NCBI GenBank assembly: GCA_036172245.1
Contig: JAYWIR010000109.1
Coordinates: 124,001-169,506, forward strand
Source of the DNA: Raillietiella orientalis
Taxonomy: Eukaryota
Direction of reading: 5' to 3'
DNA length: 45,506 nt
In this document: positions 9,874 to 45,230 of the stretch, piece by piece
How positions within the stretch are numbered: the stretch's first letter is position 1
Layout of the letters: every line of letters starts with the position of its first letter
Notes under the pieces: model-generated
Database searches by the model: none
Seen by the model: only the letters and a program-made list of their open reading frames with translations
What the model was told of the DNA's origin: nothing
Translations under genes and position numbers: made by a program

Positions 9874-11092
9874 CAAGGAGGCATGTCTTCCAGACTGCCG
9901 GGAGACCCCCGAGGGATGGGAGTACATCGGCACCATCGCCATAACGAAGAACGGCATCGAATGCCAGCGCTGGATCGATGACAAGCCCCACTACCACTAC
10001 TCGTGGGCCGACTACGCGTTTCCTGATGGCAAGGCGGAGTTCGCCGAGAACTACTGCAGGTAGGGGGAGAGCAAGGGTGCTCATCTGCCTTCTTCCTTCG
10101 ACCCCCACCCCCCGTTCACCTCCGGTCCACTGCCCCTGTCCCGAACGGGAGGGCGGATCGAGACGAAAGGAGGCCGGAGCGGTCCCACTTCCCTCGAAAG
10201 CGACGGGGACCGCGAGGGGGACGACCCTTCCTGCTCTCCGGGAAGAGGGGAGGGTTCCTTCCTGCTGCCCATTACTCCATTTTCCCCTGACTCTCGCCAG
10301 GAACCCCTATGGACTGGAGGAGCAGCCATGGTGCTACACAACAAACCCTAAGGTCCGCTGGGAGGTCTGCAGCATCCCTCTCTGTTCCGAGTGGCTCTTC
10401 GAAGGTAAAGGACTCCCGCTCTGCGAGTCCAGGAGGGTGGGTTTTAGAGAAAGAGAAAGAAAGAGGAAGAAGGGAAGAGGGGAGAAGGAGGAGAAAGAAG
10501 GGAACACGGGGAGAAGAGAATGGAAGGAGGAGGAAGAGGAAGAGAGGAGGAGGAAGAGAAGGAAGAAGAGAGGACAAAGAGAGAGGAGACAAAGAAAAGA
10601 GGAAGAAGGAACGGGGAAGAGGTGGAAGAGGGAGAAGAATCGGAGGAAGGGAGGAAGTTCCATTGGGTTGGTAGTGGTGTCCTCCCGTGACTCATTGGCG
10701 GTGCCCTTCCAGGAGGGGAGGAGGAGGAGGTAGAGGAGGTGGAGATCGAAGGGGTGGTGGTTAAGCAGAAGAAGAAATCGCTCGTCACCAGATGGTCGGA
10801 CAAGATAGCCACCATCATCTATTCCATCCCTGTGGTCGGAAAAATAATCCAGATCTCCTTTCGCATCTTCCGCAACTACAAGATGGTCTTCTTCTTCTTT
10901 ATCCTGCCCCTGTGCATCCTCATGATCTGGATGCTGCCCGTCTTCGCCCTGTATATCATGGCTTACGTGGGAGGCGGCCGCCCCGAGAAGCGGTTTGACA
11001 TCAACGTGCCTACCATGGAGGATGAGGACAAGAACAGGATCGTGGGCGGACCCCTGGTGGAGGACCACTACGTAGGTGAGGACCTCATGTGA
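9874..11092 (+). CDS. Kringle-domain membrane protein, last three exons (9874 or 9894-10059, 10301-10404, 10713-11092); 5' exons not located
   Basis: Spliced translation [26 protein letters not shown]...[33 protein letters not shown] has the six-Cys kringle pattern. GT-AG introns at 10060-10300 (phase 2, in YCR|NP, with branch-like ccctgac) and 10405-10712 (phase 1) keep the frame into an acidic linker and a hydrophobic segment ([29 protein letters not shown]). Stop at 11090-11092. Confidence 0.85.
10447..10656. repeat. Intronic polypurine (G/A) low-complexity tract
   Basis: About 200 nt almost free of C/T on the + strand, inside intron 10405-10712. Confidence 0.8.
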
Positions 11093-11743: not shown

Positions 11744-11762
11744 ACGGCGATCCAGAAGGAGC

Positions 11763-11878
11763 GTTCACGGTACCCGGGGTTCCCAGGCGGTCGCCCATCC
11801 AAGTACTGACCGGGCCCGACGCTGCTTAACTTCGCCGATCGAACGAGACGGTGCTTTCAGCGTGGTGGGACCGTAAAC
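11763..11878 (-). rRNA. 5S rRNA gene, single variant or pseudogene copy
   Basis: Minus strand reads GTTTACGGTCCCACCACGCTGAAAGCACCG...GAAGTTAAGCAGCGTCGGGCCCGGTCAGTACTTGGATGGGCGACCGCCTGGGAAC...CCGTGAAC, with eukaryotic 5S box A and box C. The 5' and 3' ends pair as helix I. It is 116 nt and no oligo-T terminator follows. Confidence 0.9.
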
Positions 11879-17480: not shown

Positions 17481-17864
17481 TAAGTGCACTGTGCAATTAA
17501 ATACGAAGCGGACAGGTGCCAACGCCAAGCATGAACCATAGAGGTTTCTGTTAGGATAATTCCTCCGCTGTGTCCTGTTTCATTTCTCTGAAGAGCGAGC
17601 TGGTGGTCACACTTTGGACCCCAGTGGCTCCTCTGAGGGGACATCCATTCTAACGCATCGTTGAAGCGCAAGGATGAGTTATGCATGCTTTACATCACAG
17701 ACCGAAATCACTCGTCGGGATGCAAAGTGAGTGTAACCAACCGCCGGGATCGTTCACTGCCGCAGATCACTGCTCTGCAAACATTACACAGTGTGAATTT
17801 GCAACCATGATTTCTTAAAGTTTGTTTGTTTTGGAACAGAACCTCCACTTTTCAAGAAAAGTCT

Positions 17865-17933
17865 GCAATGAATAGGTGCATTCATTGCACTCGTTGTGTT
17901 AGGTTTTTGTCTGATGTTGCGGGCACAAACGAA
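17865..17933 (+). pseudogene. nuoG: Fragment of bacterial NADH-quinone oxidoreductase subunit G (Wolbachia/Rickettsiales-like nuclear transfer)
   Basis: Translates AMNRCIHCTRCVRFLSDVAGTNE, the conserved 4Fe-4S motif RCIxCTRCVRF of NuoG. Confidence 0.8.
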
Positions 17934-17992
17934 CGTTGCCAATTTAGTACTCAATGAAAAAGCTTCTTTTGCTACTGTGCAATTGAGGTTTT

Positions 17993-18290
17993 CTGCCTCA
18001 TCTATATATGAAACGATAGAGTGATCTATTTTTGAAATTTCATCGATGAATCGCTGCATATCTTCTTGATTGAGCTCTTGATATGACTTTTTTAGAGTTA
18101 TTTTTAGTTTTTTTAACCTATACCAAATTAAACTTATTCCAAATCCTAGACCTTGCTTCATTTCTGCTAGCATATGATCTGGGTGTTTTTTTACGTATTC
18201 TCTGAGTACTTTTGGATCTATCTTTCGAATAAAACTTCCATTTTTTCCTGCCTTTAGGCTTTCACCATTTGCTTTCTTTTTCAGCCATCT
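17993..18290 (-). mobile_element. IS630-family transposase fragment, Wolbachia-like
   Basis: [51 protein letters not shown]...WYRLKKLKITLKK...YIDEA covers the HTH region through the first catalytic Asp (IDE). AT-rich and truncated at both ends. Confidence 0.85.
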
Positions 18291-18371
18291 TGCCATACAG
18301 ATTTTATTGCAAGGTTTCAGCGCATGCTTGGGAAAGATGTTTTTTACCCAATTGGGTTTGATGATAATGGG
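18291..18371 (+). pseudogene. valS: Fragment of valyl-tRNA synthetase (Rickettsiales type)
   Basis: Translates [27 protein letters not shown], the segment just after the HIGH motif of ValRS. Confidence 0.85.
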
Positions 18372-27206: not shown

Positions 27207-27656
27207 TTTTCACCCGAATTTCGCCGGGGCGTTTATTGAAAAATAAACTTTTACAAACACGTGCAGTGGCTGGACCAATGCTCCAGCCACGCACGAAGAA
27301 ACAGCCTGACGGGTATCCGGATCTCAGACCGGTACGGTCCACCACGGCAGCAGGGGGAAGGGGAAAAAACAAAACAAAAAAAAAGAAAAGAAGTGGGAGG
27401 GTACAGGAAGGGATCACTGTTGCTGCTGGGGCCGTTGCATCCTTTGCAGGATGCCGGCAAGCTCTTTCTGTATTCGAGGATCCCGGTGGGGCCATCTCGA
27501 CGTCCTCAGGAATTGGGCGGCGCCTAGGAAGGCACCCTTGTCGCGTGGTCCTCCCGTAGCGGTGCATCATGCGGCGAAGATCCCGCGAAGGCAGCACAAG
27601 GCTGCTATCGAGGCCGCTGGCCGAAGGGCGTCGGCAACGAAGAGGGCTTTTAGTTG
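27207..27656 (-). mobile_element. Tx1-like LINE copy A (ORF2 C-terminus and 3'UTR only)
   Basis: LFVADALRPAASIAALCCLRGI matches copy B LFVQDALRPAAALAALCCVRGI. T-rich tract and AATAAA terminal motif at 27207-27237. Confidence 0.85.
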
Positions 27657-30600
27657 CCACCCGGTCACGCCGGGGCGTTTATTAAAAATTCTCTATAATT
27701 GTGGTATATGGCCCCACTACGGCCAACACAACTGGACCTGCCGGGTTGCCGATACGCAGATCGGCGCGACTCACCTCGGCAGCGGAAGGGGGTGGGGGGA
27801 AAAACAAAAAGAAAAATAAAACATAAAAAACAAAAAGATTTTGGTGGGCGGGGAAGGAATCACGGTCCACTGCGAGGAGAATCCATCCTTTCCAGGATGC
27901 CCTCCAGGTCCGTCCGTATTCTTCCCAGATGGGGCCATCTGGTCGCAATCCGCAGGTAGCGGACTGCAAGTTCGACGGCATCCCTTTCGTGGCTCGGTCT
28001 TCCGACGTCACTCCAGCACGTCACAATCCCACGGACGCAGCAAAGTGCAGCCAGGGCAGCGGCTGGTCGCAGGGCATCCTGCACGAACAGAAGCCGAAAA
28101 ACGTCTCTGGGCTGGCTGCCCTCCTGGATGCGTAGGGAGGCACGAAGACGTTCCCACAGGGGCCGGAGGGCAGCACAATCAATAAGGAGGTGGGGGAGGG
28201 TTTCCCGCTCTCCGCACCTGATGCACTCGGGATTCACTCGACCCCTGGTCCAGTGGTGGCGGCGTGCGTTGCAGGGGAGGCCCCAATGCAACAACAGAAG
28301 TGCCGACTCCTGCCACTTCAGGGGGAGGATCCTCGATCCAATCAATACTGGGGGCCACTTCAGTTCATCCGTCTGGATGTCGAGCAGCTCGCCCCATCTC
28401 AGGAGTCCACGCGGAAGGACACTTCGGGTCGTGGCGTCAACCAGCTGCCCCGTGGTCCAGCCGCTCATTTGCTTCTCTTTGCCTGCGATACGGCAGGAGA
28501 CTTGCCACCTAGGCTTGCGGCTGCTGGAGAGCGCCCTCCTCAGGTAGGGCAACGCCGTAGCTAGGGGGGTTGTCTCCGCCCACATGCTTCTCGCGGGACA
28601 CTGGAGTATCTTCCGGAGAGTGCAGCGGGAATAGGCGCCGCGTCGCAGGCAGTTCCACATCTCTGAGTTCTGCTCTTTGATCTTCGCCCACGTGCCAGCG
28701 GTCTCCTCCAGCCATGCGGAGGAGTTGGCGGGGCTGCATTCCATCCAGCCGTTTTCCTTTGCCAGGGTTGCCATGCGTCCCAGGAGGAGTCCGCATCTCT
28801 TGATCTTCGAGCCGCGGCACAGAAGATGAGACGCGAGACCCTCCGTTCCGGATACACGGCTGGCAAGGAGTCGGGCCGGAACGCACCATGGGGTGCTCCA
28901 TAACTTCGCTGCGATGGCCAGGGTGCGCCATCGCAGCTGGATTTCTACTCTCTCCACCGTCAAGAGGCCCAGACCGCCATCCCGACGTGGAGCACACAAG
29001 TCCTTCAACTGGACTCGGGGCTCCCTCTTCCCCAAAGGGCAATCCTCAGGAGGTCCTTCGTCCTTTTTTTCATGTCTCTGGGGACGGGGCAAACAAAAAG
29101 CAGGGGGCGGAGGATGGGAGCCGCAAAGGAGTTCCACACCGCGGCCCGTTCCGGAAGCAGGAACTTGTCTTCCAAGAACGGGCCGATCGCCGTTTCCACT
29201 TTTTGGAGGCAGCCGGACCACGCATCCGAAGGGGAGTAATCCCCCAACGGCACACCGAGGTACTTCAAGCACCTCGCCGAGGTGATCCCCAAACGGACCC
29301 AGTCCTGCTGCCCAGCCCACGTCGCACCGACTGGCATCACGGACGACTTAGCCCTGTTCATCGTAAGTCCGGTTCCCCGATTCAGCAGGTCGAAGAACTT
29401 CTCGACCGCCGCAGCCGGGGTGGACATAGGGAGCAGCAGCAGAAGGACGTCCGCGTATGCTGAAACGGCCGGCGTACCGGCACATTCGTGCGGCAGGTGC
29501 GCCAGAGTTCCCCTGTACGCTCTCAGTACCAACTCGAAGGAGGTACTGAAGAGCAAGGGGCTCAGGCTGTCTCCCTGCCGTATCCCACGCCCCATCGTCA
29601 TGCCGTGCACGGTCTGCCCGCTGAAAGTATGAGAAATTAACGCGTCGCGCCAACTGGAGCGGAGATAGGCCAATAATGAGGCCGGGGAGCCCAAGCGTTC
29701 CAAAAGCTCCAGCAGGATATTCTGGTCGACGCTGTCGAGTGCTTTACGCAAGTCCACAGCGACCGCAAGTGCTCCCTCCCCCATCCGACCATCCGTCGCA
29801 TGACTGACGGACTCACCGGAATTCCCGGTGCGCATCAAGCCCCTTTCGTGTTGGAGCTCTAGCCAGGTGGAAGCGTGGAACAGGTTCGCCTCCATGCTTC
29901 GCCCCGGAACAGCATACGTCTGTTCCGGGCTGATGAAGGCGTTTGCAACCCGTACCAGGCTCTCAGCCCAAACCTTAGCTATCAACCTGGCATCCGCATT
30001 CTCTATTGTGACGGGACGCCAGTTCACGCTCCTCAGGTCTCCTCCCTTAGGGAGGAGCCGCACCTTTGCCGAGCGAAAGGAGGCGGTAACGCCACCTGTC
30101 TCGCGTATCAGCAAGATGAGTTGATGTACCAGGGGGGTAAGCTCAGCCGCGATAGTTTGATAAAACTCCGCATGCAGGCCGTCCTCCCCTGGAGCCTCGC
30201 GCATGTTGAGCTTTCCGATGGCCGTGGGGATCTCGTCCATCGTGAAAGGCTCGTCGAGGGACTTTCCTCCCGGATCGCTGGAGCGCCTTCCGGAAGCAGG
30301 AGTCGTGAGACATCCCGCTCGGGAGATCTTGCGTATAGGGAGGTGTAGAATCTCCGCAGCAGGCCGTGGATTTGGACGGGTGCCGAGTGCCCCTGGCCCT
30401 GATCATCCAGCAAGCTGGCCGATCCGAACTTCCAGGCTTGCCTCTCGGCTCCCGCTTTGTACTCCGGCAGCCCGCGGATGTCGGGGGTCCTGGCGTAACG
30501 TCTGGCGTGCAGGTAGGCTCGTTCTTTACGGATTCCGTTCCCAAATCCCGCAGGTAGGCGGTTGAAAGGGAACTGGTCGCAGAACTCCTGGTCCGACCGA

Positions 30601-30995
30601 TTGAAGCGGTCCCAGTCCTGGTGTGTCCGCAGCCTGAAGCTCCGTTTGAACGTGCTGTGATGTTCCGCCGCGTCCTGGAGCTTCAGCCCGTCCCCTGGGA
30701 GACGCAATGCTGACGAGGGGGGCCCTGACGGGCGGATGAACCTCGAGCAGGATAGGGCGATGGTCGGAGAGCTCGCACGGTAACTAGCCGCGCCTGCTCA
30801 CGCGAGGGCATAGGTGTTCGTTTAGGAACACGTGGTCGATGCTGTCCTGCACGCCTGGTTCACTGGCCAACAAATTACAGGTGTGCACCGCCGTGCACAC
30901 CTCGTTGATCAGGTCCCATTCGTGATTCGGCCCTCTGGCTTCAGGCGAACGTTAAAGTCGCCTGCAACCGAAGTGGAGTCCGAGTGCAAACCTAA
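27657..30995 (-). mobile_element. Tx1-like LINE copy B, 5'-truncated within the APE endonuclease; frameshifted ORF2
   Basis: AGDFN (~30960), IDHVF and LSDHR endonuclease motifs; APGEDGL, NWRPVT, GIRQGDSLSPLLF, YADV (mutated YADD) and KYLG RT motifs; CIRCGERETLPHLLIDC zinc motif; terminal motif at 27658-27683. Confidence 0.92.
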
Positions 30996-31182
30996 AGAGC
31001 GCGTATCCCGAGGTAGCCCTGGAGCGCGACGGGCTACAGCGCAAGTACGAGTCTGTTGGCGGAAGCGATTCCGGCCCCTGCTCGGAGCCCGAAGCGATGA
31101 TTTTCGGCTCGAAGGACTCAGCTGGGTGCGATGCGACGGTGATCGATAGCTAGTCCGCTTCCCAATCCGCAGTGCTGCCAGT

Positions 31183-31425
31183 TTACTGCTCGCCGGACGC
31201 GTTTGTACATATTTCCCTTAGCTGATTCAAACTAGAGTGGACACCCTCGGATATGTTCTCCATATGTTCGTCTGTTGGTTTGTATTGGGTGATTAGAGCA
31301 TCTAGATTGGCCTTATGCTTTGGGGTCGTTATCCATCCCTTATAGTCGTTTATACTGTTAAAGGCTGGTCCCCATATAATCTCAGATATTCCTTTCCTAC
31401 AGGTGGCACAGTTTTGTACAGTTTT
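31183..31425 (-). other. Non-LINE insert carrying an 80-codon open frame (C-terminal fragment of an unknown protein)
   Basis: Manual translation KTVQNCATCRKGISEIIWGPAFNSINDYKGWITTPKHKANLDALITQYKPTDEHMENISEGVHSSLNQLREICTNASGEQ*. More AT-rich than the flanking LINEs and absent from other copies. Confidence 0.45.
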
Positions 31426-34020
31426 TCACCCGGGTGAGGCAGGGCTTTTATTATTAAAACTTTTTACAAGAAAAAATTCCATACTAAAGTCCTTTTTCTT
31501 TTCACTGTTTTGAATGTTTTTTTCAGCAGTAACACGTTCCGCTGTCTTGGGGCACTTGTCATTACCGACCCGTAGACCGATAAGGTCTTCCACATTGGCG
31601 CAGGGGCGGGAAAAAAAAGAAAAAAAAAAAAAAGAAAAACGCCTTGGGGGGGGGGGCAGTTTTATGGGAGGGGGGCAAGGGTGGGGATAACGGTACGCCG
31701 TGAGGAGGCCTCTGCACCCTGCTTCGGATGCGAACAAGTGCCGGTAAATGTTATCGAAGTCGGCGCCAACGGCATGGCTTCTCCAAAGAGATGGCTACCC
31801 AGTGAATGGCATTCCGACTGGTCCGGCCTCTCCGTGACTCGGTCCACTTGTCCAGGATTCCGCGTATGCAACAGAGCACTGCTACACACCCGGAGGCTAG
31901 CAAGGTGTCCCGCATCAGGAGTCGAAAAATGTTCTTGGGTACGCCCTCCGGAATGTTGAGGATCGACGAGTGTCGGTCCCACATATCGCGGAGGGCAACA
32001 CACTTTGGAATCAAGTGGGGGAAGGTCTGCCTTTCCCCTCACTCTGTGCAGTTGGCATCCACATTCTCCGATGTCCAGTGAGACAGGCGTGCTCTGCTTA
32101 AAAGTCCCCAATGGAACAGAAGCAACGCCGTCTCCTGCCACTGCAGGGGAAGGGTGCCGTTGTCCCAAGACGCTGGGGGCCACTTCACCTCCTCCGGAGC
32201 TACGTTGAGCAGCGCGCCCCAGCGTACAAGTCCACTCGGCGAGACAGTCGGGGTACTAGCGTCCGCTAGTTCCCGGGATGTCCACGCCTTCATCCGTTTT
32301 TTCCTGCCTCCGATGAGGCAGGACACTTCCCACGATGCCTCCTGTTGACTGTTCCTGGCTTCTATGAGGGAGGGCAGCACGGGGGCAAGGGGGGTGAAGG
32401 AAGCCCACAGAAGTTCCCGTGGGTTGGAAACGATCTCCTGCAGTGGCTGGCCAGCGCACGTGCCTCGACGGAGGCAGAAGTCCACATCGCTGGAACCGTT
32501 GACTTTTGCCCACGGGGAAACGGACTCCTGTAGCCAGGTAGTCCAGTCCGCGGGGTTGCAGGAGATCCACGGATTCTCCCTCTCCAGGGCAACCAGATCG
32601 GTAAATGGTTAAGACTAAGGTCGTTGGCTACCAGGATTGGGGTCAATCCGTAGCAGCCGGTTGCCCTGTGGGCGAGGAGTCTTGCGGGAGCACACTAAGG
32701 TGCTGGCCAATTCTTTGCCACAAGGGCAAGTTTTCGAAATTGCAGCTGTCGCACCATGTGCTCCAACGTGAGGAGACCAAGTCCACCGTCCCTGCTTAGA
32801 GCGCACAAGTCTTTAAGCCGGACGCGGAACCTCCCCTTTCCCCAAAGGGCGATGCGCAGGAGGTCCTTTGTGTTTTTTTCTATTCCCATGGGGATGGGGC
32901 AAACAAAAAGTAGGAGGCGAAGGATGGGAGCCGCAAACGCGTTCCATACCGCGGCCCGTTCCGGCAAGAGGAACTTGCCCTCCAGGAACGGGACGATCAC
33001 CAACTGCACTTTCTGGAGACGGCCTGACCAGGCTTCTGACGGGCAGAAGTTTCCCAGCGGAACGCCAAGGTACTTCAGATATGCGCCCGTCGGGATCCCC
33101 AGGCGGATCCAGTCAGGCCGTCCTTCCCACGTCGCTCCAACTGCCACCATCGACGATTTTGCCCTTTTGACTCGTAGCCCTGTCCCACGGCTTAGCAGGT
33201 CGAAGAAATATTCGACTGCCGTTGCCGGGGCGGACATTGGGAGCAGGAGCAGCAGATCGTCGGTATATGCGGACACGGCAGGCGTGCCGGGGCACGAGCT
33301 TGGCAAGGCAGCCAAAGTCATCCTGTAAGCTCTCAGCACCAACTCGAAGTAAGTACTGAAGAGCAAAGGACTGAGGCTATCTCCCTGTCGAATCCCGTGG
33401 CGCACCGGGAGGCCGTACACGTGTTGTCCTCTGAAAAAGATGTTCGTCAGCACGGCGCGCCAGCAGGAGCACAAGTACGCCGTTAAGGTCGATGGGAAGT
33501 CCATGCGATGCAGAAGCTCCAGAAGCTCCTGGTCCACGCAGTCGAACGCTTTATGGAGATCGACTGCGATCGCTAGGGCACTATTGCCCGCCCGGCTGTC
33601 CCCACCCTGACCAGCGGTCACCCTTAAATTGGGGTTGCAGGGATCCCTTACGTTCTTTAACTTCGCCTTGCACATAAAACCATGTGCTGGCGAAGAACAG
33701 GTTAGCCTCCATACTTCGCCCGGGAACAGCATAAGTCTGCTCCTGGCTAATTACGGATTCGGCTACCTGTCCGAGCCGCGCGGCCCACAGTTTCGCTACC
33801 AACTTGAGTCCGTGTTCACGACCGTGACCCGACGCCACTTCAACTCACTCCTTCCTAAGGAAGGTCTCCTCCCTTAGGAAGGAGCCTCATCCTTGCTGAC
33901 CGGAACGAGGCGGGAACATCGCCTTCTTCCCGGATCAAATGTATCAACCTATGCATCAAGGGGGTGATCTCTGCCGCGAAGCATTGAAAAAACTCCGCGG
34001 GCATCCCTTCCCAGGCTTCC
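31422..34020 (-). mobile_element. Tx1-like LINE copy C (RT through 3' end), degenerate
   Basis: GMPAEFF, LLPKGGDL, AVDLHKAFD, GIRQGDSLSPLLF, AYTDDL and KYLG motifs; C-terminal CTE*GERQTFPHL; terminal motif at 31422-31452. Confidence 0.92.
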
Positions 34021-34087
34021 AAATGACAAGTGTTTTTACTTTTTCTTTTTTTTTTTCTTTTTGTTTTTCCCCCAACCCTATCCGTTG

Positions 34088-35059
34088 ATCGTTGTCCATG
34101 GTCCAAGGACATAGCCTGGAAGCATCGTAATTGGAGATATCACGTACATTCCATCTATCTTGCGACATCTTGTCATAGTTTGGCTCCCAGTTGGAAAATA
34201 CAAGGATGTGGGGCGGGTCAAAATACTTGATGCTTCCTCGGTATTTGGAAGCGAAAATGATACCATTTTTCAAGGTTTCTATAAATCCATACTGGACTAT
34301 TTCCTGGTTATCTCTTGTAAGATCAATGACAATGATTCGTTCACCGTTGTATATGTGGGCTGCATCAGCTTTTTTGCAGCTGTGCATGTATATGCCGTTC
34401 CTTTTAAGGTAAAGAAACTTGGCGAAGGTGGTTTTGCCGTTTACTCCTATTGGGTCGAAATACCAGTATATTTTTCGGTCGTCTGGTGGTGAGCGTATCA
34501 ATTTTAGTATGTCCATTTGCCAGCTGCGTAATTGCAAGTTGGCCATGGGGTTAGGATGTTTTCTGCTTCGTGTTAAACGGAAGCATTCTTTTACGAAGTT
34601 AATGTTCTTGCTATAGAATTTAGTGTGGTTTCTCAATATGTCGAGTTCTGATGCTCCGTTTTCAATTAGTTGGAGTATCTAGGTTGAAATAAAGAGATTG
34701 GTCATTTGAAGTTTGCTTACCATGTCTTGGTAGTCGTTTGTTTCTTTTTCTTGTTGTATCATGCCAAATGTCCAGGCTTCGTGGTCCTCTTTTGTGCAGA
34801 ACCGTAGGTTGCTCTGTGGCGAACCGCGTGCTTTTTCTAGGTGGCACTTCTGGAAGGTTGTGTGCTTTAAAGCAGGAAATGTGCGTGGTTCCTTGAGTTG
34901 CACATATCCCTGAAGGTGCGGTGTTCCAGTGCTTGCTTTCTCTTTGCCAATGATTGCGAAGGTGCAATTTCTTCTGCACCAGTCCTTTATTTGTTGAAGT
35001 TCTTCATCGAGGTAGTTGCACAACGTGAAGCACCAGTATAAGAAGTGGCCGTATGGCAT
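34088..35059 (-). CDS. rep: Endogenous CRESS-DNA virus Rep (HUH endonuclease plus SF3 helicase), with putative 42-nt intron at 34679-34720
   Basis: Motif I CFTLCNY, motif II PHLQG, motif III FCTKE (Tyr replaced by Phe), Walker A GVNGKTT, Walker B IVIDLTR, motif C VFSN, Arg finger SQDRW. The two listed ORFs are in the same frame, separated by one TAG. Confidence 0.95.
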
Positions 35060-35116
35060 GTTGGTGATTGGTAATTCTGTCGAGGTGAGACTGGTTTATG
35101 CCTCATGCTGTGGTGG

Positions 35117-35124
35117 TTTATATA
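35117..35124 (-). promoter_or_regulatory. Putative TATA box for rep
   Basis: TATATAAA on the minus strand about 60 nt upstream of the rep ATG (35059), between the origin and the gene. Confidence 0.55.
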
Positions 35125-35141
35125 CTGGCAAACTGCGCAGT

Positions 35142-35177
35142 ATTTGCAATCTGGTTAGTATTACCCAGATTGCAAAT
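35142..35177 (+). promoter_or_regulatory. Rolling-circle replication origin stem-loop with nonanucleotide TAGTATTAC
   Basis: ATTTGCAATCTGG-tTAGTATTAC-CCAGATTGCAAAT: perfect 13-bp stem, nonamer at 35156-35164 on the strand opposite the rep coding strand. Confidence 0.95.
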
Positions 35178-35375
35178 GTCTTCGTCGGCAAAACCTTGGA
35201 AATTCTGTCGAGGTGAGACTGGTTTATGCCTCATGCTGTGGTGGTGTGGGGTGTCAAGTCGGTCTGCGCACCGACCACCTGACAGTTCCATAGAATTATT
35301 GGCTGCAGCAGGTCCTTGTACCGCAAACACTGTAAGTTTCTTTTAAATAAACGCCCCGGCTTGAACGGTTGAAAA

Positions 35376-37623
35376 CGTACGAGGAAAGCGACACCGCACG
35401 TACGTGCGACGCCGCACCTATAATGTAGCGTTCCGCCCGCGCGCCGTTCGATTTCGGCAGCCTGCTCGTCGGAGATGCTGTGAATCTCCTGCAGAAGCGT
35501 CAAGTCTAAGGCGCGCAGAGCGTTAGCCACTAGTCGCCTCTTCTCGTCGAGCTGGAGCCCTTTGACGTTCCAGCACCCTTTGACGTTGCCACACGACGAG
35601 AAGACGCGATTGCCCTCATCACGGCTGGGAAAGCGAGGCCGTGGTGGTCGTCTAAGCCGGCGAGCGGGCAGTAACCAGTACGACGGGCTGGAGGGCGCGG
35701 TCGCCACTGGCCTGCACCGTGCTGGCGTAATCGAGTGCTCCTCCCCGGGTGCAAAACCTGTGGGTTCCGGGGTGAGCACTCGCCGTTCCGCGGCGAGTGT
35801 GTCACGCCTCAGGGCTTCAGCCCTGCGGGCGTTCGCTCCGGCGCGAGTAACTCGTCGTTCAGCGGCGTTATCGGACTCCTTTACGGAGTCTGATGCTCGC
35901 GCGATCGACGTGCGTTTGCATCCGTCCGATCGCACCGGAATCGTCTTCTCGGCGGTCACAGAGGCGTACTTGCAATTGTTGACGGCGCTGGCTTTTTCCT
36001 GGGCAGAAGAACCCTCCGCGCGTGTTCGTATTCTCGTGACTGGTTTTTGCTTTGGAAGAGCTCAGGGATGAAGGCTGCGAAGTTTTTTTTGGAGATTTTT
36101 CTTTCCTCCTCTCCACAAACTTCCATTCGCCTTCACGATTTTCGGAGGCTTCCGCGTCAGAAGTTACGGAAACCTCCGGGATTTTCGCTGCGGTATCTGG
36201 AGGCGTTGCTTTCGCTACGCCTTTAAAAGGCGCCAACGGAGTCACCTTGGCAGTCGAGAGATTGCTCCCCTCCTGCCGAGTCGGCGATGGGGCGACGGCA
36301 TGCAGCGTGCTCTTCCGCTGCTTTTTACGCTTTCGTAGCCATCGCAGAGGGCCCTGCGTTGCATTGGGCCTCTGGGAAACTCGGAAGAGACATCGGAATG
36401 GCACAGGAAGTGCTCGTACTGTTGCGATCTTCCTGCTTTCCTACTTTGTGTCCAGGGGTTTTGGGATATTTCCTGGTTGCTGGCTCGGAAAGGTCCCGGC
36501 GAGTTCGGCAGCCAGGGCGGGCTCGGCACGCTTCGAGCCCTCGCATCCCTTTTTAATTTCCTTCCCCGCCGTGATTTCTCCCTTTCGAGGCGTTGCGGGC
36601 GGGGACGCCTGTTGTTTAGCCGCGTATTACTTGGCTCTTTTGCCAAGACTCCGCAGACACTGTTGTTTCTTGGGGGCAGCGGCCTTTCTTGCGTTGGTCT
36701 CTTGAACGCGACGAACTTACGCTGCTGCCCTTTTTTTTGCAAGTACCGGGCACTTTTTTATTTCGTGCCCGGTTTCTTTGCAGTAGCGGCATTTCGGGGT
36801 GGGACATTCCTTCATTCGGTGTCCCTCCTTGCCGCACTGCTCGCATGCGCGAGTGTGGCCTATGAACCACAGGTGAACGACCGTGCCGTTCACCTGCAGC
36901 TGCTCAGGCTCAACACGCCTGTTCGCGACGGTGATCTGCACGGAGACTTGTCCGATGTGGACAGAGGGGAAATCCTTTAGAGGATTTGGTCTCCTCCACA
37001 GAGCGTGCACGGTGGCGAACTTCGCTAGCACGCTGACGACATCGCTGTCGGAGATTTCCGGCTCGATGTCGCACAATTGAACAACAAAAGAGGCGTCCAT
37101 CACGGAGGGCAGGACTTCCTTGCCACCGATGGTCAGCGGACTACGGAGAAGGCGCTGCACAAATGCCGCGTTCTTGCACCGTATCTTCGTGTATTCCATC
37201 CTGCCTGCAGGCATGATGGCAAGTTCCTTCGAACGCCGATCCGGACGAGCTCATCGTTGAGCTCATGCGCGGTCCTCCCGTTAAGGGGACAACTGACCTT
37301 ATAACGGAGTGCGGGAATGTAGCCGGATGCCACATAGGCCTGCGACTCCGCATCGCAGGGTCCTGCTCCCTGGGAGGTGACGGCGGCGTAGCTCCTCACC
37401 GAAGGCGAGGAAACCGTCACGGAGGATGCGGCCGCTTCCATTCCAATTGAATTGGATTCAACGGCTTGCTCCTCCACACCATTCTCAGAACTGGACATGC
37501 TGCACAACGCTGCTTGGTTGACTTGGCAGAAACACACAAGTGCGAGCGAAAACGCAGGCACAAATATGCTCAATCGCGGACGGGGTGAGAAGGGAAAACA
37601 CGTCTGTACTGTGGGAGCGCAGA
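35376..37623 (-). mobile_element. Tx1-like LINE 5' portion: 5'UTR, frameshifted ORF1 (ATG 37498) and start of the ORF2 endonuclease (ATG 35619)
   Basis: ORF1 has RSYAAV and two CCHC knuckles (CEQCGKEGHRMKEC, CRYCKETGHEIKKC). ORF2 begins with APE motifs WNVKGL, LLQEIH and GVAFL, then breaks at 35376. Confidence 0.9.
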
Positions 37624-39757
37624 TTTCTCACCCGGTCACGCAGGGGCGTTTATTTCATATAACATAAACAAAAACAATTATATAAAATAATCCAGTTGGG
37701 AACCCTGCTCCCAACCGACGACTGAACAAGGATCAAGAGTAGATTGCTGGCACTGAGGCCAGAATAACACAGAACGGTGTGGGGAACTGGGAACACAAAC
37801 AAACAAATACAAAAGAAAAAGAAATCAATGGGGACGCCATGACAAGGGACTTTGGGATTGCTCTGGTTCGCACTGGGATAAAAGTAATCCCACCGGCAGT
37901 TTAGCAGAGCGAGCGGGGAAGAGGTATGGGTGGGCTACAGTTCAGAGTGATCACCGGATTACGCCGTTCTTGAAAGTCTGTAAACCGGCGATGGATGCCG
38001 GTGATGTCCTCTTTGACCTCTTCACGAAGATGAGGCCACATAGCAGCCTTTTCCATGGATTCTGCTGCAAACCGGTGAGCCTCCCTTCGCTGCGCCGACA
38101 ACTCAAGGGCGTAGCGGGCCTTCACGATGTAGCGAATGCAGCACATGGTTGCGACAATCGCGCCTACCGAAAGTCCATTCCTGCTGAAGAATCGTCGCAG
38201 CACATCAATGGCAGTGCCACCCTGCGGCAGGATGGCTGAAATCAACCTTCGCCACAGTTCACGGAGGTCACCAGCAAGAGGTGCGTAAAAGACTCGATCT
38301 CTCCGCACCTCAAACAGTTTGGCAGAGCAGCTCCCCCGGAAACGATGCTTCGTTGCCTATTACAGTGGAAGCCCCAGTGTAAAAAGAGTAGCACATCTTG
38401 TTTCCACTTTAAGGGGAACACTGAGCTGTCCAAACAAACGGGGGGAACCACCAGCTCTTCGGGGGTTACACTTAAATGTTCACTCCATCGAAGCAGGCCC
38501 TTCGCCCGATTACGAGGAGTGGCAGTTTCCACCAGCTCCTTTGTCGTCCAGCCGCCGAGGAGCATACAGACTCCCGCTATTGTGCAGAACTCCCATTTCG
38601 CCGGTAGGCAACTGTCGTCGCTTGCCCTGAGGGCAGACAGCGCTGCGGCGAGTGGTGTGGCGGCCAGACGATCCGTCTTCTTGTCCTGCATGACTTCGTC
38701 CATTGGATGACTGAGGAGAAGTCGCAGGCGTCGAAGATCTTCCGGGCGCGTTCCTTCGGAAGCTGCCCACGATGAAAAAAATTCCTGCCGCCATGCATTA
38801 ATGTTCATGGGCGGCAGGAGATCCAACATTGGGCTTCCAGCAGTGAGGACAGCTGCCTCAGCGGGAAGCCAAACCCCATTCTGGTGTGCGGAAAGTGGGG
38901 CAGCAACGAAAGCAGTCCCTCGCTTCCTGTGCAGCGCCTTAGTATAAGGCGTGTGGGTAAGCACCACGGCGTACACCACAGCCTGGCACAGAGCCGCAGC
39001 ATTCGAAACTGCACCTGCAGCTCGACGCTGTTTAAGTCGAGGATGCCCGAGCCTGCATCCTGACGCGGCGCCACTAAGTCTTTAAGTCTTTCGCGAGATC
39101 TTGCAGCGCCCCACAACGTTTTGCGTAGGGGGCGCTGCGCCCAGACTTTGAATTCCTGGTGGGGTGGCCAAACAGAAAACAGGGGGCGGAGGAGGGGGGC
39201 AACGAAGGTGTTCCAGATGATGGCCGGTTCCGGCAAGACGAATTCGCCTCCTGAGAACGGGCCAAGTGCACGCTCTGCCTTCCGAAGACAGCCCGACCAC
39301 GCTTCTGAGATGCAGAAGTCTCCCAACGGCACGCCAAGGTACCTCAGGTACCTGTTCGTGGGGATCCCCAGGCGGATCCTGTCGGACTGCCCCTCCGACA
39401 TCGCTCCCACCGCAACAACCATGCACTTGCTCCTGTTGACGCTCACGCCCGCACCGCGGCGGATCAACTCAAAGAAATTTTCAAGCGACGCCGCCGGGGT
39501 GGACATGGACAATAGGAGAAGCAGGTCGTCGGCATGGGCTGCCAAGGCCGGCGTACCTGGACAGGAGCTCGGCAGGTTGGCTAGCGTCAGCCTGTAAGCC
39601 TCCAGCACCAATTCGAAATAGCTGCTAAAGAGCGGCGGGCTTAAGCTATTGTCCTGCCTAATTCCTCGCCGTACCGGCACGCCGTATACGCGACAGCCAC
39701 AAAACAATGGATGTAATCGCGTGGCGCCAGTAGGAGCGCAAGTACGGCAACAGGGAT
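37624..39757 (-). mobile_element. Tx1-like LINE copy D (divergent subfamily; RT C-terminal half through 3' end)
   Basis: GIRQDNSLSPPLF, AHADDL, RYLG and CLRCGEIESFTHLLL motifs; terminal motif at 37624-37654. Confidence 0.9.
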
Positions 39758-39779
39758 GCCGTACTTGCGCTTGCCGTAC

Positions 39780-40745
39780 GAGGGTATTACACATTTTAGT
39801 GCATTATTCATTGGGAATTTTACATGGAGGTAATTATCTTGTGGGTAGAGAGAGGAAGACTAGTCATAGGAGGTGTACCATTGCGGGGGAGAGCTTTTTC
39901 TGTAGCAGACAACGGATTCTGTTTTGTTGAATTAATCATATGCAGGGGGTTACAAGTTATTAGGGGAGTTATTCTAGGGAGATTGACGGTGTTTGCGGGA
40001 AGCTGGACTTGGCCTGGGGCAGAAATCATTTGGGATGGGGAAACTGAGCTTGAACGAGAACGAAAACTGGAAATCTTCGCATTATGCAAGGGGATCTCTG
40101 AAGATGATCTTTTGGGATATAATGGTATTCCAGCAGGAGAGGTGTTTTTCAGGAAAACACATTCCCTTGTTGCAAGCTCTGCAAACGAGGAAGTGTTTTC
40201 GAAAGGATAAATTATGGCAGGAAAGAAAATGGTGTTTCAATTTTTCAATAGGATTCTCCTGAATGCTCGTATTAGTTAAGAATGAGCAAGTCGGGATTAA
40301 GCATTTAAAGCTAGAAGCAATGGGAAATTTAACCAGCAATAACTGATTTGTAGTTAATGCGAGGTCATCATTGCATATGGGTCGCAACTTTACAAAACTT
40401 AGAGGGGGTGTGGTCGATTGTGGACGAAGTGGTGAGGACGAATGAGACTTCGGAGCATGAAATGCAGATTTTGAGTAAGCATCACAAGATCGCAGGGAAC
40501 ATTGCCACAAATTTTGCTAATTGGGCTGGAAAACCTGACCTGTTTGACAGAACTAATTAAAGGTTTAGAACTAATTAAAGTAACATGCAAATCTTTGGAA
40601 TTTGGTACAAGTGAAGAATTGTCAGAGAGACCAGAGGGCGAACAAGATTGCAATATGTTCTCAGGAATGATTGCAGGAGGCGAATCCATAGGCGGATTAA
40701 TAGCAATGTCCGACATAGGCATAGGTGAGGAATCCCAACACATCC
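39780..40745 (-). mobile_element. AT-rich fragment resembling the N-terminal zinc-finger region of a NeSL/Utopia-type (RLE) retrotransposon
   Basis: LLVKFPIASSFKCLIPTC...LKHHFLSCH...CRACNKGMCFPEKHLSC gives FP-Cx4C...Hx4H...Cx2C...HxxC, flanked by Ser/Pro-rich sequence. Contains a frameshift and stops. Confidence 0.55.
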
Positions 40746-42768
40746 GTTAGCTCCCGAGTCGTACACGTCTTTAAAGGTTTTCTCCTGCCTCGCATGAGGC
40801 AGGACACTTCCCACGATGCCCGCTCGTTGCTGCTCCTAATGTTTTTCAGGGAGGACAGAACGGGGGCAAGGGGGGTGATAGAAGCCCACAGAAACTTCCG
40901 GGGCGTGTTGACAATCTCCTGCAGCGGCTGTCGAGCGTACGGTCCTCGACGTAGGCAGTTGTATTCCGGCTCGCTCGTGCCGTTGATCTTAGCCCACGCG
41001 GAGACTGACTCCTAAAGCCAGGCAGTGCAGTTCGCGGGGAGGCAGGAGATCCAGGTATTCTCTCTCATCAGGGCGACCATCTGGCGCAGATGGAAGCCCC
41101 AGGTGGTACTGAGGCTGCGCTGGTAGGTCACGAGGATCGAGGACAATCCTTCGCAGCCGGTCGCTTTTCTGGCGAGGACCCGTGCCGGATCGCACCATGG
41201 CGTCATCCATAAGCTAGCCGCGAGGGCTAGCTTTCGAAATGAAATTTGGTGTTGCATGCGCTCCATCGCAAGGAGGCCCAAACCACCGTCCCTGCGTGGA
41301 GCGCACAAGTCTTTCAATCGGACTCGCGACCTCGCTGTGCCCCAAAGGGCAGTCCTCTAGAGGGCTTTGGTCCATCTCTGTATGATGGGAGGGGCGGGGC
41401 AAACAAAAAGTAAGGGGCGAAGGAGGGAGGCCGCAAACGCGCTCCACGCCGCGGCCCGTTCATGCAGGAAGAACCTGCCGTCCTGGAACGGGCCGATCGC
41501 CGCCTGAGCCTTCTGAAGGCAGCCGGACCACGCTTCCGCAGATGAGTAATCCCCCAACGGCACACCAAGGTACTTGAACTACCTCACCGTGGGGATCCCC
41601 AAACGGACCCAGTCCTGCTGCCCTGCCCAAGCCGCTCCGACTGGCATTACGGACGACTTCGCCCTGTTCACCGTCAGTCCTGTTCCCCGACTCAGCAGGT
41701 CGAAGAAGTCCTCGACCGCCGAGGCCGGGGTGGACATAGGCAGCAGCAGCAGAAGGTCGTCCGCGTACGCCGAAACCGCTGGCGTACCGGGACAATCGCA
41801 CGGCAGGTGCGCCAGAGTCTCCCTGTACGCTCTCAGCACCAATTAGAAATGGGCGCTGAAGAGCAAGGGGCTGAGACTGTCTCCCTGCCGTATGCCGCGT
41901 CGCACCGGTACGCCGTACACGGTGGATCCACTGAAAAAGACATTAATAAGCGATTCGCGCCAGCTGGAGCGCAGGTAGGCCAGCAAAGAGGCCGGGAAGC
42001 CCAAGCGTTCCAGAAGCTATAAAAGGAGATTCTGGTCGACGCAATCGAACGCTTTACGCAGATCGACTGCGACCGCAAGGGCACCGGGCGCGGCTCTTCC
42101 ATGAAGGGCGTCCCCTCCCTGGTCAGAGGAGAATCCAGGATTCTCTTGACCTCCCTGGTCTTCGCTTTGTTGCAACTGCCACCATGTACTGGCGAGGAAC
42201 AGGTTGGCCTCCATGCTTCGTCCGGGAACAGCGTATGTCTGCTCCGGACTCACCACGGATTCCGCCACCCGTCCCAGTCGCTCAGCCCAAAGCTTGGCAA
42301 GCAACTTCGCATCCGCATTCACTACTCTGATGGGACGCCAGTTGCCTACGTTGCGATTGTCTCCTCCTTTCGGCAGGAGACGTATTCTAGCTGACCGGAA
42401 CGATTTGGGGACGTCCCCTTGTTCTCGGATCAGCATGCAAAGCCCATGCACCAGGGGGGCCAGCTCCGCCACGAAGCCTTGGTAGAACTCCGCGGGCAGA
42501 CCGTCTTCCCCTGGTACTTTCCTCTTTCTGAGCTTTCCGATGGCGGAGACGATCTCCGTCATCGAGAAAGGTTCCTCGAGTTGATGTGTCTGCTCCTCCT
42601 GTAGCGCGGGGGCGCCTTGCGGCAGCAAGCGCTGCGCCACGGCGCGCTCTGTTGTTCTACGCGCGTACAAGAAGGAGGAATAGTCAGGCAGGATGCGGTT
42701 TCTTTTCGCCGGAGCTGAGCATTCCTGGCCTTGGGCATCCAGCAAGCTGGCCGACCCGGATTGCCAGG
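40746..42768 (-). mobile_element. Tx1-like LINE internal ORF2 fragment (copy D2; lacks both ends)
   Basis: VPGEDGLPAEFY, NWRPI, AVDLRKAFDCVD and AYADDL motifs. Breaks off after WEVSCLM and has no terminal motif. Confidence 0.9.
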
Positions 42769-45230
42769 TTTTTCACCCGGGTAAGCCGGGGCTTTTATTA
42801 TTAAAATTTTTTGAGATTACAAAAAATTCCATAACAGAGTCTGAATTTTTTCACCAAAAATCTCATTTTCTGTTCAGGATGTCTAGAAGTTCATAAACGT
42901 TTAGTGGCACTTGTCCTTACCGACCCGGAGGCCGATAAGGTCCTTCACTGGCGCCGGGACGGGAAAAATAAAAGAAAACAAAAACAAAAAAAAGAAAAAC
43001 GTCTGGAGGGCAATGTTTTTGGGGAGGGAGGGAGGGGATCACGGTGCGCCGTGAGCAGGCCTTTGCATCCGGTTTCGGATGCGAACAAGTGCCGGCAAAT
43101 GTTTTTGAAGTCGGCGCCAACGGCACGCTTTCTCCAAGGAGATCGCTGCCCAGTGGATGGCATTCCGGCTGCTCCTTCCTCTCCTAGACGCGGTCCACTT
43201 CTCCAGGATACCGCGTATGCAGCAGAGCACTGATACGCTCCCGGAGGCTGGCAAGCCGTCTTGCGTCAGGAGGCGTCTGAATAAATTTTTCGGGTCACCC
43301 CCCGGAATGTTGAGGATCGACGAGAGTCTGTCCCACATTTCGCGGAGGGCAACACACTCCAGAATCAAGTGGGGGAAGGTCTCCCTTTCCCCGCACTCTG
43401 CACAACTAGCATCCACATTCTCCGATGTCCAGTGAGACAGGCGTGCTCTGCTTAAAAGTCCCCAATGGAACAGAAGCAACGCCGTCTCCTGCCACTGCAG
43501 GGGAAGGGTGCCGTTGTCCCAAGACGCTGGGGGCCACTTCATCTCCTCCGGAGCTACGTTGAGCAGCGCGCCCCAGCGTACAAGTCCACTCGGCGGGACA
43601 CTCGGGGTACTAGCGTCCGCTAGTTCCCTCGGCGTCCACGCCTTCATCCGTTTTTTCCTGCCTCCGATGAGGCAGGACACTTCCCACGATGCCTGTTGGT
43701 GGCTGTCCCGAACTTCCCTGAGGGAGGGCAGCACTGGGGCAAGGGGGGTGAAGGAAGCCCACAGAAGTTTCCGTGGGTTGGAAACGATCTCCTGGAGTGG
43801 CTGACCAGCGTGCCTCCCTCTGCGGAGGCAGGAGAAGTCCTCCTCGCTGGTGCCATTGATCTTCGCCCATGCGGAAACAGACTCCTGAAGCCAGGTAGTC
43901 CAGTCCGCTGGGATGCAGGAGATCCAAGGGTTGTCTCTCATCAGGGCAACCAAGTCCCGCAGCTGATAACCACAATGGTTCAGGCTGCGTTCGTTGGCTA
44001 CCAGGATTGAAGTCAATCCGAAGCAGCCGGTTGCCCTGTGAGCGGGCCGATCGCCAGCTCCACTTTTTGTAGATGGTCGGACCAGGCTTCTGCAGAGCAG
44101 AAGTCCCCCAACGGAACGCCAAGGTGCTTGACGTACCTGCCCGTGGGGATCTCCAAGCGGATCCAGTCCGACCGTCCGGCCCTCGTCGAGTCGGTGAGAA
44201 GCAACGACGACTTCGTCCTGTTTACCTGGAGGCCTGTCCCACGGTATAGCAACTCGAAGAAATCCTCGAGCGCCGATGCCGGGGTGGACCCGGGAAGCAG
44301 GAGCAGAAGATCGTCTGCATAGGCCGACACGGCAGGCGTGCCGGGACACGAGCTCGGCAGAGTTGCCAAAGTCTCCCTGTATGCTCTCAGCACCAACTCA
44401 AAGTAGATGCTGAAGAGCAGGGGGCTGAGACTGTCACCCTGCCGGATGCCACGACGAACCGGCACGCCGAACACGTGCCGGCCGCTGAAATTAATATTGA
44501 TGAACGCGAAGCGCCAGCAGGAGCGTAGGTAGGCCAGGAAGACGGCCGGAAATCCCAAGCGTTCGAGGAGCTCCAGAAGGAGCTCCTGGTCGCCGCAGTC
44601 GAAAGCTTTACGCAAATCGACTGCGACCGCAAGGGCTCCAGGCGCCGCTTCTTCTTCCCGGGTTCCCTCCCCCCTGTCAATGGAGAGTCCAGGACTTTCC
44701 CGACGTAGCTGCGCCTCGCGTTGTTGCAACTGCCAGAAGGTGCTGGCGAGGAACAGGTTGGCCTCCATGCTTCGTCCGGCATACGTAGTTTTAGCACCAG
44801 GGGGCCAGCTCTGCCGCGAAGCCTTGGTAGAACTCCGCGGGCAGACCGTCTTCCCCTGGTGCTTTCCTCTTTCTGAGCTTTCCGATGGCGGAGACGATCT
44901 CCGCCATCGAGAAAGGCTCCTCGAGTTGATGTGTCTGCTGCTCCTTTAGCGCGGGCGCGCCTTGCGGCAGCAAGCGCTGCGCCACGGCGCGCTCTGTTGT
45001 TCTACGCGCGTACAAGGAGGAGTAATAATCCCGCAGGATGCGGTTTCTTTTCGCCGGAGCTGAGCATTCCTGGCCTTGGGCGTCCAGCAAGCTGGCCGAC
45101 CCGGATTGCCAGGTCTGTCGCTCAGCCCCAGCTTTATACTCCGCCAGGCGTCGAACGTCGGGAGTCCTAGAGTAAAGACGGGCGTGGTGGTATGCCCGGT
45201 CGTTCCTCAGCCTTTCGCGGAAACCTGGAC
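42769..45230 (-). mobile_element. Tx1-like LINE copy E (5'-truncated; internal deletions near 44040 and 44790)
   Basis: APGEDGLPAEFY, GIRQGDSLSPLLF, AYADDL and CAECGERETFPHLILEC motifs; terminal motif at 42769-42799. Confidence 0.92.

Follow-up and report, generated by a model that had tools for sequence, protein, structure and literature searches.

Conserved hairpin and fixed terminal motif in the 3′ untranslated regions of an L1-clade retrotransposon family of Raillietiella orientalis

The window analysed here is a stretch of 45,506 nucleotides (nt) of Raillietiella orientalis DNA (assembly GCA_036172245.1, contig JAYWIR010000109.1, positions 124,001 to 169,506, forward strand). From about 26.5 kb onward it is a nest of broken copies of retrotransposons without long terminal repeats (non-LTR), mostly on the minus strand. 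It contains six 3′ untranslated regions (UTRs), those of copies A, B, C, D and E and of one inverted copy, all of them broken long interspersed nuclear elements (LINEs) of the L1 clade. We report on the tails of this family, composed of a hairpin (hairpin 1), in some copies a second hairpin (hairpin 2), and a terminal motif at the element end, as found in the window and among the copies of the 210-Mb assembly. The features, some in or next to the second open reading frame (ORF2), are as follows.

27207..27237, minus: copy A, 3′ end of the element, with the terminal motif (AATAAA and a small GC stem) and the final four bases
27261..27294, minus: copy A, hairpin 2, long stem, 7-nt loop
27316..27333, minus: copy A, hairpin 1, 3′ arm decayed relative to the subfamily majority
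27654..27683, minus: copy B, terminal motif and 3′ end
27701..27725, minus: copy B, hairpin 2 as first proposed (27709-27725) and a crossing stem (27714-27717 with 27701-27704); candidate H-type pseudoknot
27748..27765, minus: copy B, hairpin 1, 6 base pairs (bp), CUGCGU loop, G-C to A-U change of its sub-lineage
27799..27838, minus: copy B, T-tract after the ORF2 stop (from the sequence)
27860..30402, minus: copy B, frameshifted ORF2 (reverse transcriptase, zf-RVT; from ORF and profile search)
31423..31452, minus: copy C, terminal motif and 3′ end
31560..31585, minus: copy C, hairpin 1, extended stem, cUACGg loop
34003..34087, plus: inverted copy, start of the 3′ UTR with T-tract
34095..35235, minus: endogenous insert like the Rep of CRESS (circular Rep-encoding single-stranded DNA) viruses, broken frames, within the UTR of the inverted copy
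35258..35275, plus: inverted copy, hairpin 1, CUGCGC loop
35346..35375, plus: inverted copy, terminal motif and 3′ end; the copy lies antisense within an endonuclease domain
37625..37654, minus: copy D, terminal motif and 3′ end
37695..37715, minus: copy D, hairpin 2
37746..37763, minus: copy D, hairpin 1, loop decayed from CUGCGU
42770..42799, minus: copy E, terminal motif and 3′ end
42915..42940, minus: copy E, hairpin 1, extended stem, cUCCGg loop

The hairpins had been pointed out in a sequence-only reading of the window, and all nine strings that it quoted are present where it had placed them. Hairpin 1 was said to follow the T-tract in all six UTRs; it does not do so in the inverted copy, where a Viral_Rep insert of ~1.15 kb separates the tract (34003-34087) from the hairpin. 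The 4-bp stem with 8-nt loop of copy A and the CUCAGU loop of copy D exist as quoted but are decayed forms and not the subfamily type, the majorities being a 6-bp stem with CUGCGA and a CUGCGU loop, respectively. The two compensatory differences that separate copy B from the inverted copy (a member of a 13-copy subfamily) are genuine; copy B's A-U pair is derived in its own sub-lineage, the B subfamily majority being G-C.

The elements have the open reading frame layout of the L1 clade, that is an upstream ORF1 and an ORF2 with an APE endonuclease, a reverse transcriptase (RT) and a C-terminal zinc motif. A long-ORF relative elsewhere in the genome carries a CCHC ORF1 and an ORF2 with APE, RT and zinc motif. 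In profile searches, locus L091 matched Exo_endo_phos and RVT_1 above cut-off, and zf-RVT and zf-CCHC weakly, while ORF1 in the window matched zf-CCHC above cut-off. When compared with solved structures, ORF2 scored 157 bits with human L1 ORF2p and at most 45 bits with R2 proteins. The database matches to the RT comprise two unnamed sequences at 72-73% and, outside the family, relatives of at most 38% identity (~25-38%); those with names are RT-domain proteins of plants, fungi and animals (~22-36% identity), and no named Tx1 reference is among the matches. Since ORF2 favours human L1 ORF2p and the RT relatives are distant, the family is, by sequence comparison, an L1-clade LINE without a close named relative.

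Across the genome 343 loci were gathered by UTR DNA, terminal pattern, ORF2 protein and viral insert, a sampling that leans toward close relatives of the query sequences. Anchoring the 3′ ends on the ORF2 C-terminus gave 379 anchors at 328 distinct places with at least 220 nt downstream. The terminal motif was present in 310 of these 328 ends, compared with 4/328 in a reversed control, and in 222 of 234 ends from loci picked by ORF2 protein alone; a stricter pattern has 485 exact matches in the genome and none in the control. The 310 motif-bearing ends form 39 ORF2 clusters, taken as subfamilies, 16 of them with at least two copies; ORF2 DNA distance between clusters was ~0.22-0.64 in an earlier subset of the loci.

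All six window copies and all 39 clusters, the latter defined on ends already carrying the motif, end in AATAAA-N-GCCCCGGC-N4/5-CCGGGTG or a near variant. The motif is followed by NNAA and then by a target duplication of 11-17 nt, so that copies stop at ...GGGTG-NN-AA. Positions 3 and 4 past the motif are A in 97% and 94% of 302 ends, and 300 of these ends have no A-run above 5 within the next 40 nt. Among the same 302 ends there were 50 duplication candidates, 44 with a plausible offset and a length of 11-17 nt (control, 1/302), and 29 of the 44 begin exactly 4 nt past the motif. Duplications open with 4-mers typical of the subfamily (TCGA, CTAA, AGCA etc.) and not with A-runs, and seven mismatched duplications point both ways as to whether the target-like letters after NNAA derive from the RNA or from the target. 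The poly(A) ends and T/A-rich nicks of mammalian-type L1 are thus not found: A-runs above 5 are nearly absent, and the duplications begin with mixed 4-mers. Target-site duplication and 5′ truncation, as in the L1 clade, are both seen; only short insertions fit inside the loci. A single copy of the 302, at L259 (position 2133 onward), has a long A tail, with A15 at a normal 3′ junction and an 11-nt duplication, which suggests a polyadenylated template. TTTATT occurs within 45 nt before AATAAA in 20 of the 39 cluster majorities, a count made with no chance control; this word could base-pair with the poly(A) signal or serve as an antisense signal. At L050 (about 1490-1530, minus) we observed an insertion of ~34 nt and four bases, i.e. 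the terminal motif alone, with an 11-nt duplication.

Hairpin 1 has the general form of a 6-bp stem with a six-base CUGCG(N) loop, at a median distance of 94-137 nt from the element end. It was counted in 281 of the 310 copies, the 29 excluded belonging to two clusters with a five-base loop, one without hairpin, two with deletions and one that could not be aligned. The commonest loops are CUGCGU (133), CUGCGA (36), CUCCGG (17) and CUGCGC (12). The cUNCGg tetraloops noticed early in copies C and E belong to their clade, where a C-G-closed UNCG-type loop is found in 31 of 48 copies, but are nearly absent elsewhere (2/233), and the general feature is the hexaloop.

In an alignment made from sequence only, hairpin 1 lines up nearly gap-free. 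Canonical cells at its six pairs number 258/278, 269/279, 267/278, 240/279, 264/280 and 215/281, and the closing pair occurs in three Watson-Crick states (C-G 117, U-A 110 and G-C 23 copies). In a set of 49 real copies from 35 of the 39 clusters, chosen as the commonest haplotypes and hence leaning to intact copies, 90.8% of the hairpin-1 cells are paired, compared with 79.3 after shuffling and 18-48% in slid registers. The same set has 52 double-change cells against 12.4 shuffled (0/500), with double changes at all 6 pairs, and RNAalifold predicts hairpin 1 as the sole helix. We then rely on the compensatory count, because the canonical-cell count of a tree-aware test is inflated by plain conservation: with substitutions re-dealt over the ORF2 tree, 33 clusters yield 31 compensatory cells against 10.1 +/- 4.5 (0/3000), and the 14 multi-copy clusters alone 14 against 4.0 (2/3000). 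Slid-register controls of this test give 2-9 compensatory cells, one of them reaching 12/500.

Variation within subfamilies tells the same way. Variants found in at least two copies keep the hairpin-1 pair in 18 of 25 cases, singletons in 9 of 49 (p about 1e-5), and after collapsing near-duplicates (298/310 copies) the numbers are 16/23 shared and 10/50 single. Among shared transitions G-U outnumbers A.C by 11 to 1, in line with the earlier reading of a structure selected on the sense strand; with near-duplicates collapsed, the ratio is 9 vs 1 for shared variants and 9 vs 11 for singletons. Such asymmetries are the pattern predicted for selection on the sense-strand RNA. We conclude that selection maintains hairpin 1 in the sense-strand RNA. 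The window hairpins taken alone would be weak evidence: among shuffles of five ~52-nt window segments, 11-24% contain a 5-bp hairpin with Watson-Crick pairs only and 56-80% when G-U is allowed. What supports the structure is positional homology together with covariation across the genome copies. A covariance model, searched in the window alone, recovered five of the six copies and missed D. An outer stem enclosing hairpin 1, which can be drawn in many subfamilies, was rejected for lack of covariation (score 0.142 vs 0.136 shuffled, 179/500); there, shared variants keep pairing in 3 of 16 cases.

Selection on hairpin 2 as an RNA structure is weakly indicated. Folding of its region compared with shuffles gave z -4.5 in copy A, -3.3 in D and 0.2 in B, and the stretch from hairpin 1 to AATAAA folds at z <= -3 in 8 of the 16 multi-copy clusters, A and D included, with no better-than-shuffled folding of this stretch in B, its five relatives or C/E. 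Over five clusters, pairing is kept in 11/22 shared vs 11/45 single variants (p=0.053). Hairpin 2 as described from the window is thus stable in A and D, but the register proposed for B was rejected, having no covariation support (1/4 shared vs 2/11 single variants keep pairing); the 7-nt loops, described as starting with G, often start with C in other subfamilies. The 4-bp stem of B is invariant across the B-clade majorities, and a fifth pair is private to the window copy. In the B clade a second 4-bp stem begins within the hairpin-2 loop and crosses hairpin 2. This stem does covary: of 88 copies, 62 have U-A at one of its pairs, 23 have C-G and 3 are exceptions (85/88 paired), both states being found inside one subfamily. 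Possibly the two stems coexist as an H-type pseudoknot, or only the second stem forms.

Insertion is frequently antisense into the family's own ORF2, at sites that differ between subfamilies (about amino acid (aa) 75, 85, 315, 505, 590 and 1070; e.g. L004, L014-L019, L234-L253). This was so in 29/42 copies for B (about aa 505), 16/43 for A (about 590) and 19/29 for D (about 75), and for two further subfamilies in 24/41 (about aa 1070) and 8/12 (about aa 85). Such insertion builds nests and would yield antisense transcripts.

The signal type is already known from other LINEs, and hairpin 1 is real. The strongest evidence for a mode other than poly(A) recognition is the fixed terminal motif together with the lack of copied poly(A). 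The sequence-only reading, which had compared the tail with L2/R2-type rather than L1 poly(A) recognition, is plausible on this point, although it did not mention that evidence. The transcript would be cleaved and polyadenylated about 22-24 nt past AAUAAA, the usual polyadenylation spacing. ORF2p would hold its own RNA via the structured tail, that is hairpin 1, probably read at the CUGCG loop, and the terminal motif, and reverse transcription would start at a set position, two or three bases inside the poly(A) tail. The target sites carry no T-tract for poly(A) pairing, which argues against the route of human L1 ORF2p here. Taking both statements jointly, we judge it moderately probable that the tail serves stringent-type 3′ recognition with a fixed reverse-transcription start, as in ZfL2/UnaL2 and monocot LINE1-1_ZM, and that the family is an undescribed, self-targeting L1-clade LINE that is Tx1-like in its features.

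Several observations weigh against stringent recognition through this tail. Covariation in a larger alignment, on which the structural claim was to be checked, is supported by the compensatory-count tests but not by a strict all-pairs scan in the manner of R-scape (G-test, tree null, 33 subfamily rows), where no pair reached E<0.05. The closing pair of hairpin 1 ranked 2 of 3327 (E 0.77) behind a non-helical pair, and the other five pairs ranked 192-885; we read the scan as not yet significant rather than as a refutation, because 33 rows give low power, and by our own arithmetic E for the closing pair is about 0.0014 when only the six proposed pairs are counted. Hairpin 1 is missing in one three-copy subfamily, a 22-copy subfamily has a different five-base loop, and several successful subfamilies have a relaxed loop, with UGCG in 2/28, 1/12 and 5/13 copies. 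The terminal 5-bp stem is invariant in the majorities, so that pairing there is unproven, and its shared/single comparison is uninformative (4/12 vs 9/26, covering 5/11 subfamilies). The A15 of L259 could be a post-insertion expansion. Moreover, no short interspersed nuclear element (SINE) with this tail was seen among 30 motif-chosen loci, no genome-wide SINE search having been made. Finally, the hairpin by itself cannot separate stringent from poly(A) recognition, because human ORF2p also holds a template stem-loop, as described in the accessible part of PMC10830416.

Hairpin 1 might also be selected for a host-facing step, such as 3′ processing, stability, export, translation or ORF1p loading, with the terminal motif alone setting the RT start. 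We regard this as unlikely, even though the end lies 94-137 nt downstream of hairpin 1, some subfamilies have a relaxed loop or have lost the hairpin whereas the terminal motif is kept throughout, and the frequent TTTATT <=45 nt before AATAAA (20/39 majorities) makes it conceivable that structure near the poly(A) signal matters. Against it, a variable stem with a largely fixed loop over subfamilies that differ by 25-60% in ORF2 DNA is the protein-read pattern of ZfL2, which leaves the reading protein unspecified.

A more elaborate proposal, to which we attach little credence, makes the tail one tertiary ruler: the UGCG loop of hairpin 1 would kiss the terminal loop (CG-Y-R), the B clade would add an H-type pseudoknot, and the L1-clade RT would start at a fixed base just inside poly(A) without primer-template pairing. 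Among six large subfamilies with a terminal loop able to pair with UGCG, 130/152 copies retain this word, against 40/124 copies among six with a loop unable to do so, and complementarity between the two loops is 109 vs 102 shuffled (67/2000). However, the rows lack independence, compensatory changes between the two loops were not found, and CUGCG persists in several single-copy subfamilies with a non-matching terminal loop.

It is quite improbable that recognition is of the relaxed L1 type with a generic stem as anchor, where ORF2p binds poly(A), any nearby stem positions it and the short tail reflects this positioning. The basic surface of human ORF2p does hold a template stem, whose unpairing makes product lengths heterogeneous (PMC10830416, accessible part), and here AAUAAA is conserved and one copy has A15. 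But human ORF2p needs ~20 A according to the same source, whereas the targets here have no T-tract and 300/302 ends no A-run; furthermore, the terminal motif is conserved in sequence, beyond mere shape. That GC-rich, CCGG-rich sequence inherited from one ancestor gave rise to the hairpins by chance, as the near-palindromic CCGG words of both arms, the frequency of such hairpins in shuffles and the non-significant all-pairs scan might suggest, is very improbable in view of the three Watson-Crick states of the closing pair, the tree-aware excess of double changes and the shared/single and G-U asymmetries.

Other features were noted in and around the nest. The CRESS insert in the inverted copy matches Viral_Rep (E 4.7e-15) and, weakly, RNA_helicase, and contains a 50-nt duplication (35068/35196). 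About 36 matches in the genome, at 66-82% identity, are its relatives, several amid LINE fragments; such inserts were rejected as general carriers of the LINE tail, since 0/14 other loci read lay in a 3′ UTR. Copy E lies within the ORF2 of another element, and ~320 nt of its flank are duplicated at 95% (42448-42769 vs 44794-45114; region 42770-45114), far more than the usual target-duplication length. When the window was searched with Rfam, no family matched the 3′ UTRs, and elsewhere only 5S rRNA and two weak miRNA matches were returned. The solitary 5S rRNA gene (11762-11878, minus) has no likeness to other copies beyond 5S itself. An IS630/Tc1-type transposase fragment (17787-18371, minus) and a Kringle-domain exon (about 10290-10390, plus) are also present.

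L2 tails end in short tandem repeats, from which the tails described here differ by having none at the terminus. The family also differs from the L2 clade by its ORF2 match, which places it in the L1 clade, and recognition of its tail by ORF2p is proposed from sequence. Its change-tolerant stem is like those of ZfL2-1 and ZfL2-2 (PMC4176376) and of eel UnaL2 (PMC1636434), where, in the accessible text of these papers, the cognate ORF2p reads the loop; for ZfL2, stem-variable, loop-specific recognition is established and binding was shown (PMC4176376).

Within the L1 clade, the monocot LINE1-1_ZM and its partners ZmSINE2/3 share a conserved 3′ hairpin with compensatory stem changes and conserved loop letters, which Ohshima 2012 (PMC3472496), in the part accessible, reads as stringent recognition without a direct assay. 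The family here is likewise an L1-clade LINE with a compensated 3′ hairpin; unlike that of LINE1-1_ZM, which is SINE-shared and comprises the ~45-50 nt at the end, hairpin 1 lies ~100 nt upstream and a separate invariant motif forms the end. The same text counts L1 families without a 3′ repeat as 9/233 in flowering plants and 5/15 in green algae, and three SINE/L1 pairs in it are the thin support for the proposal that the L1 clade was ancestrally stringent. In the present family about 39 diverged subfamilies coexist in a single genome, some of them including young copies and copies with long ORFs; its naturally mutagenised hairpin, fixed poly(A)-free junction and subfamily-specific targets make the family well suited to testing which RNA an L1-type RT selects and where it begins to copy. 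In the literature covered, which took in few subscription papers and neither Repbase nor supplements, we found no paper on the present family and nothing specific on an L1/Tx1 family that lacks poly(A) and has a tail of this kind.

As with human L1 and Alu (PMC5135761, PMC10830416, accessible parts), where the ORF2p of an L1-clade element contacts a stem of the template close to its 3′ end, a stem is found near the end of the template here. Human ORF2p needs ~20 A, with ~5 A paired to the primer, and the cradled template stem narrows the product lengths, as shown on Alu RNA (PMC10830416); human L1 copies a long poly(A) paired to T-rich nicks, and the copies here show neither. The family resembles the Tx1 group in ORF layout and target-site preference: Tx1-Mar and Keno, in the accessible text of PMC4494074, have a CCHC ORF1, an APE-RT ORF2 and a site inside another transposon, opposite orientation included. 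Unlike in Tx1-Mar and Keno, the target here is the family's own ORF2, with a different site for each subfamily.

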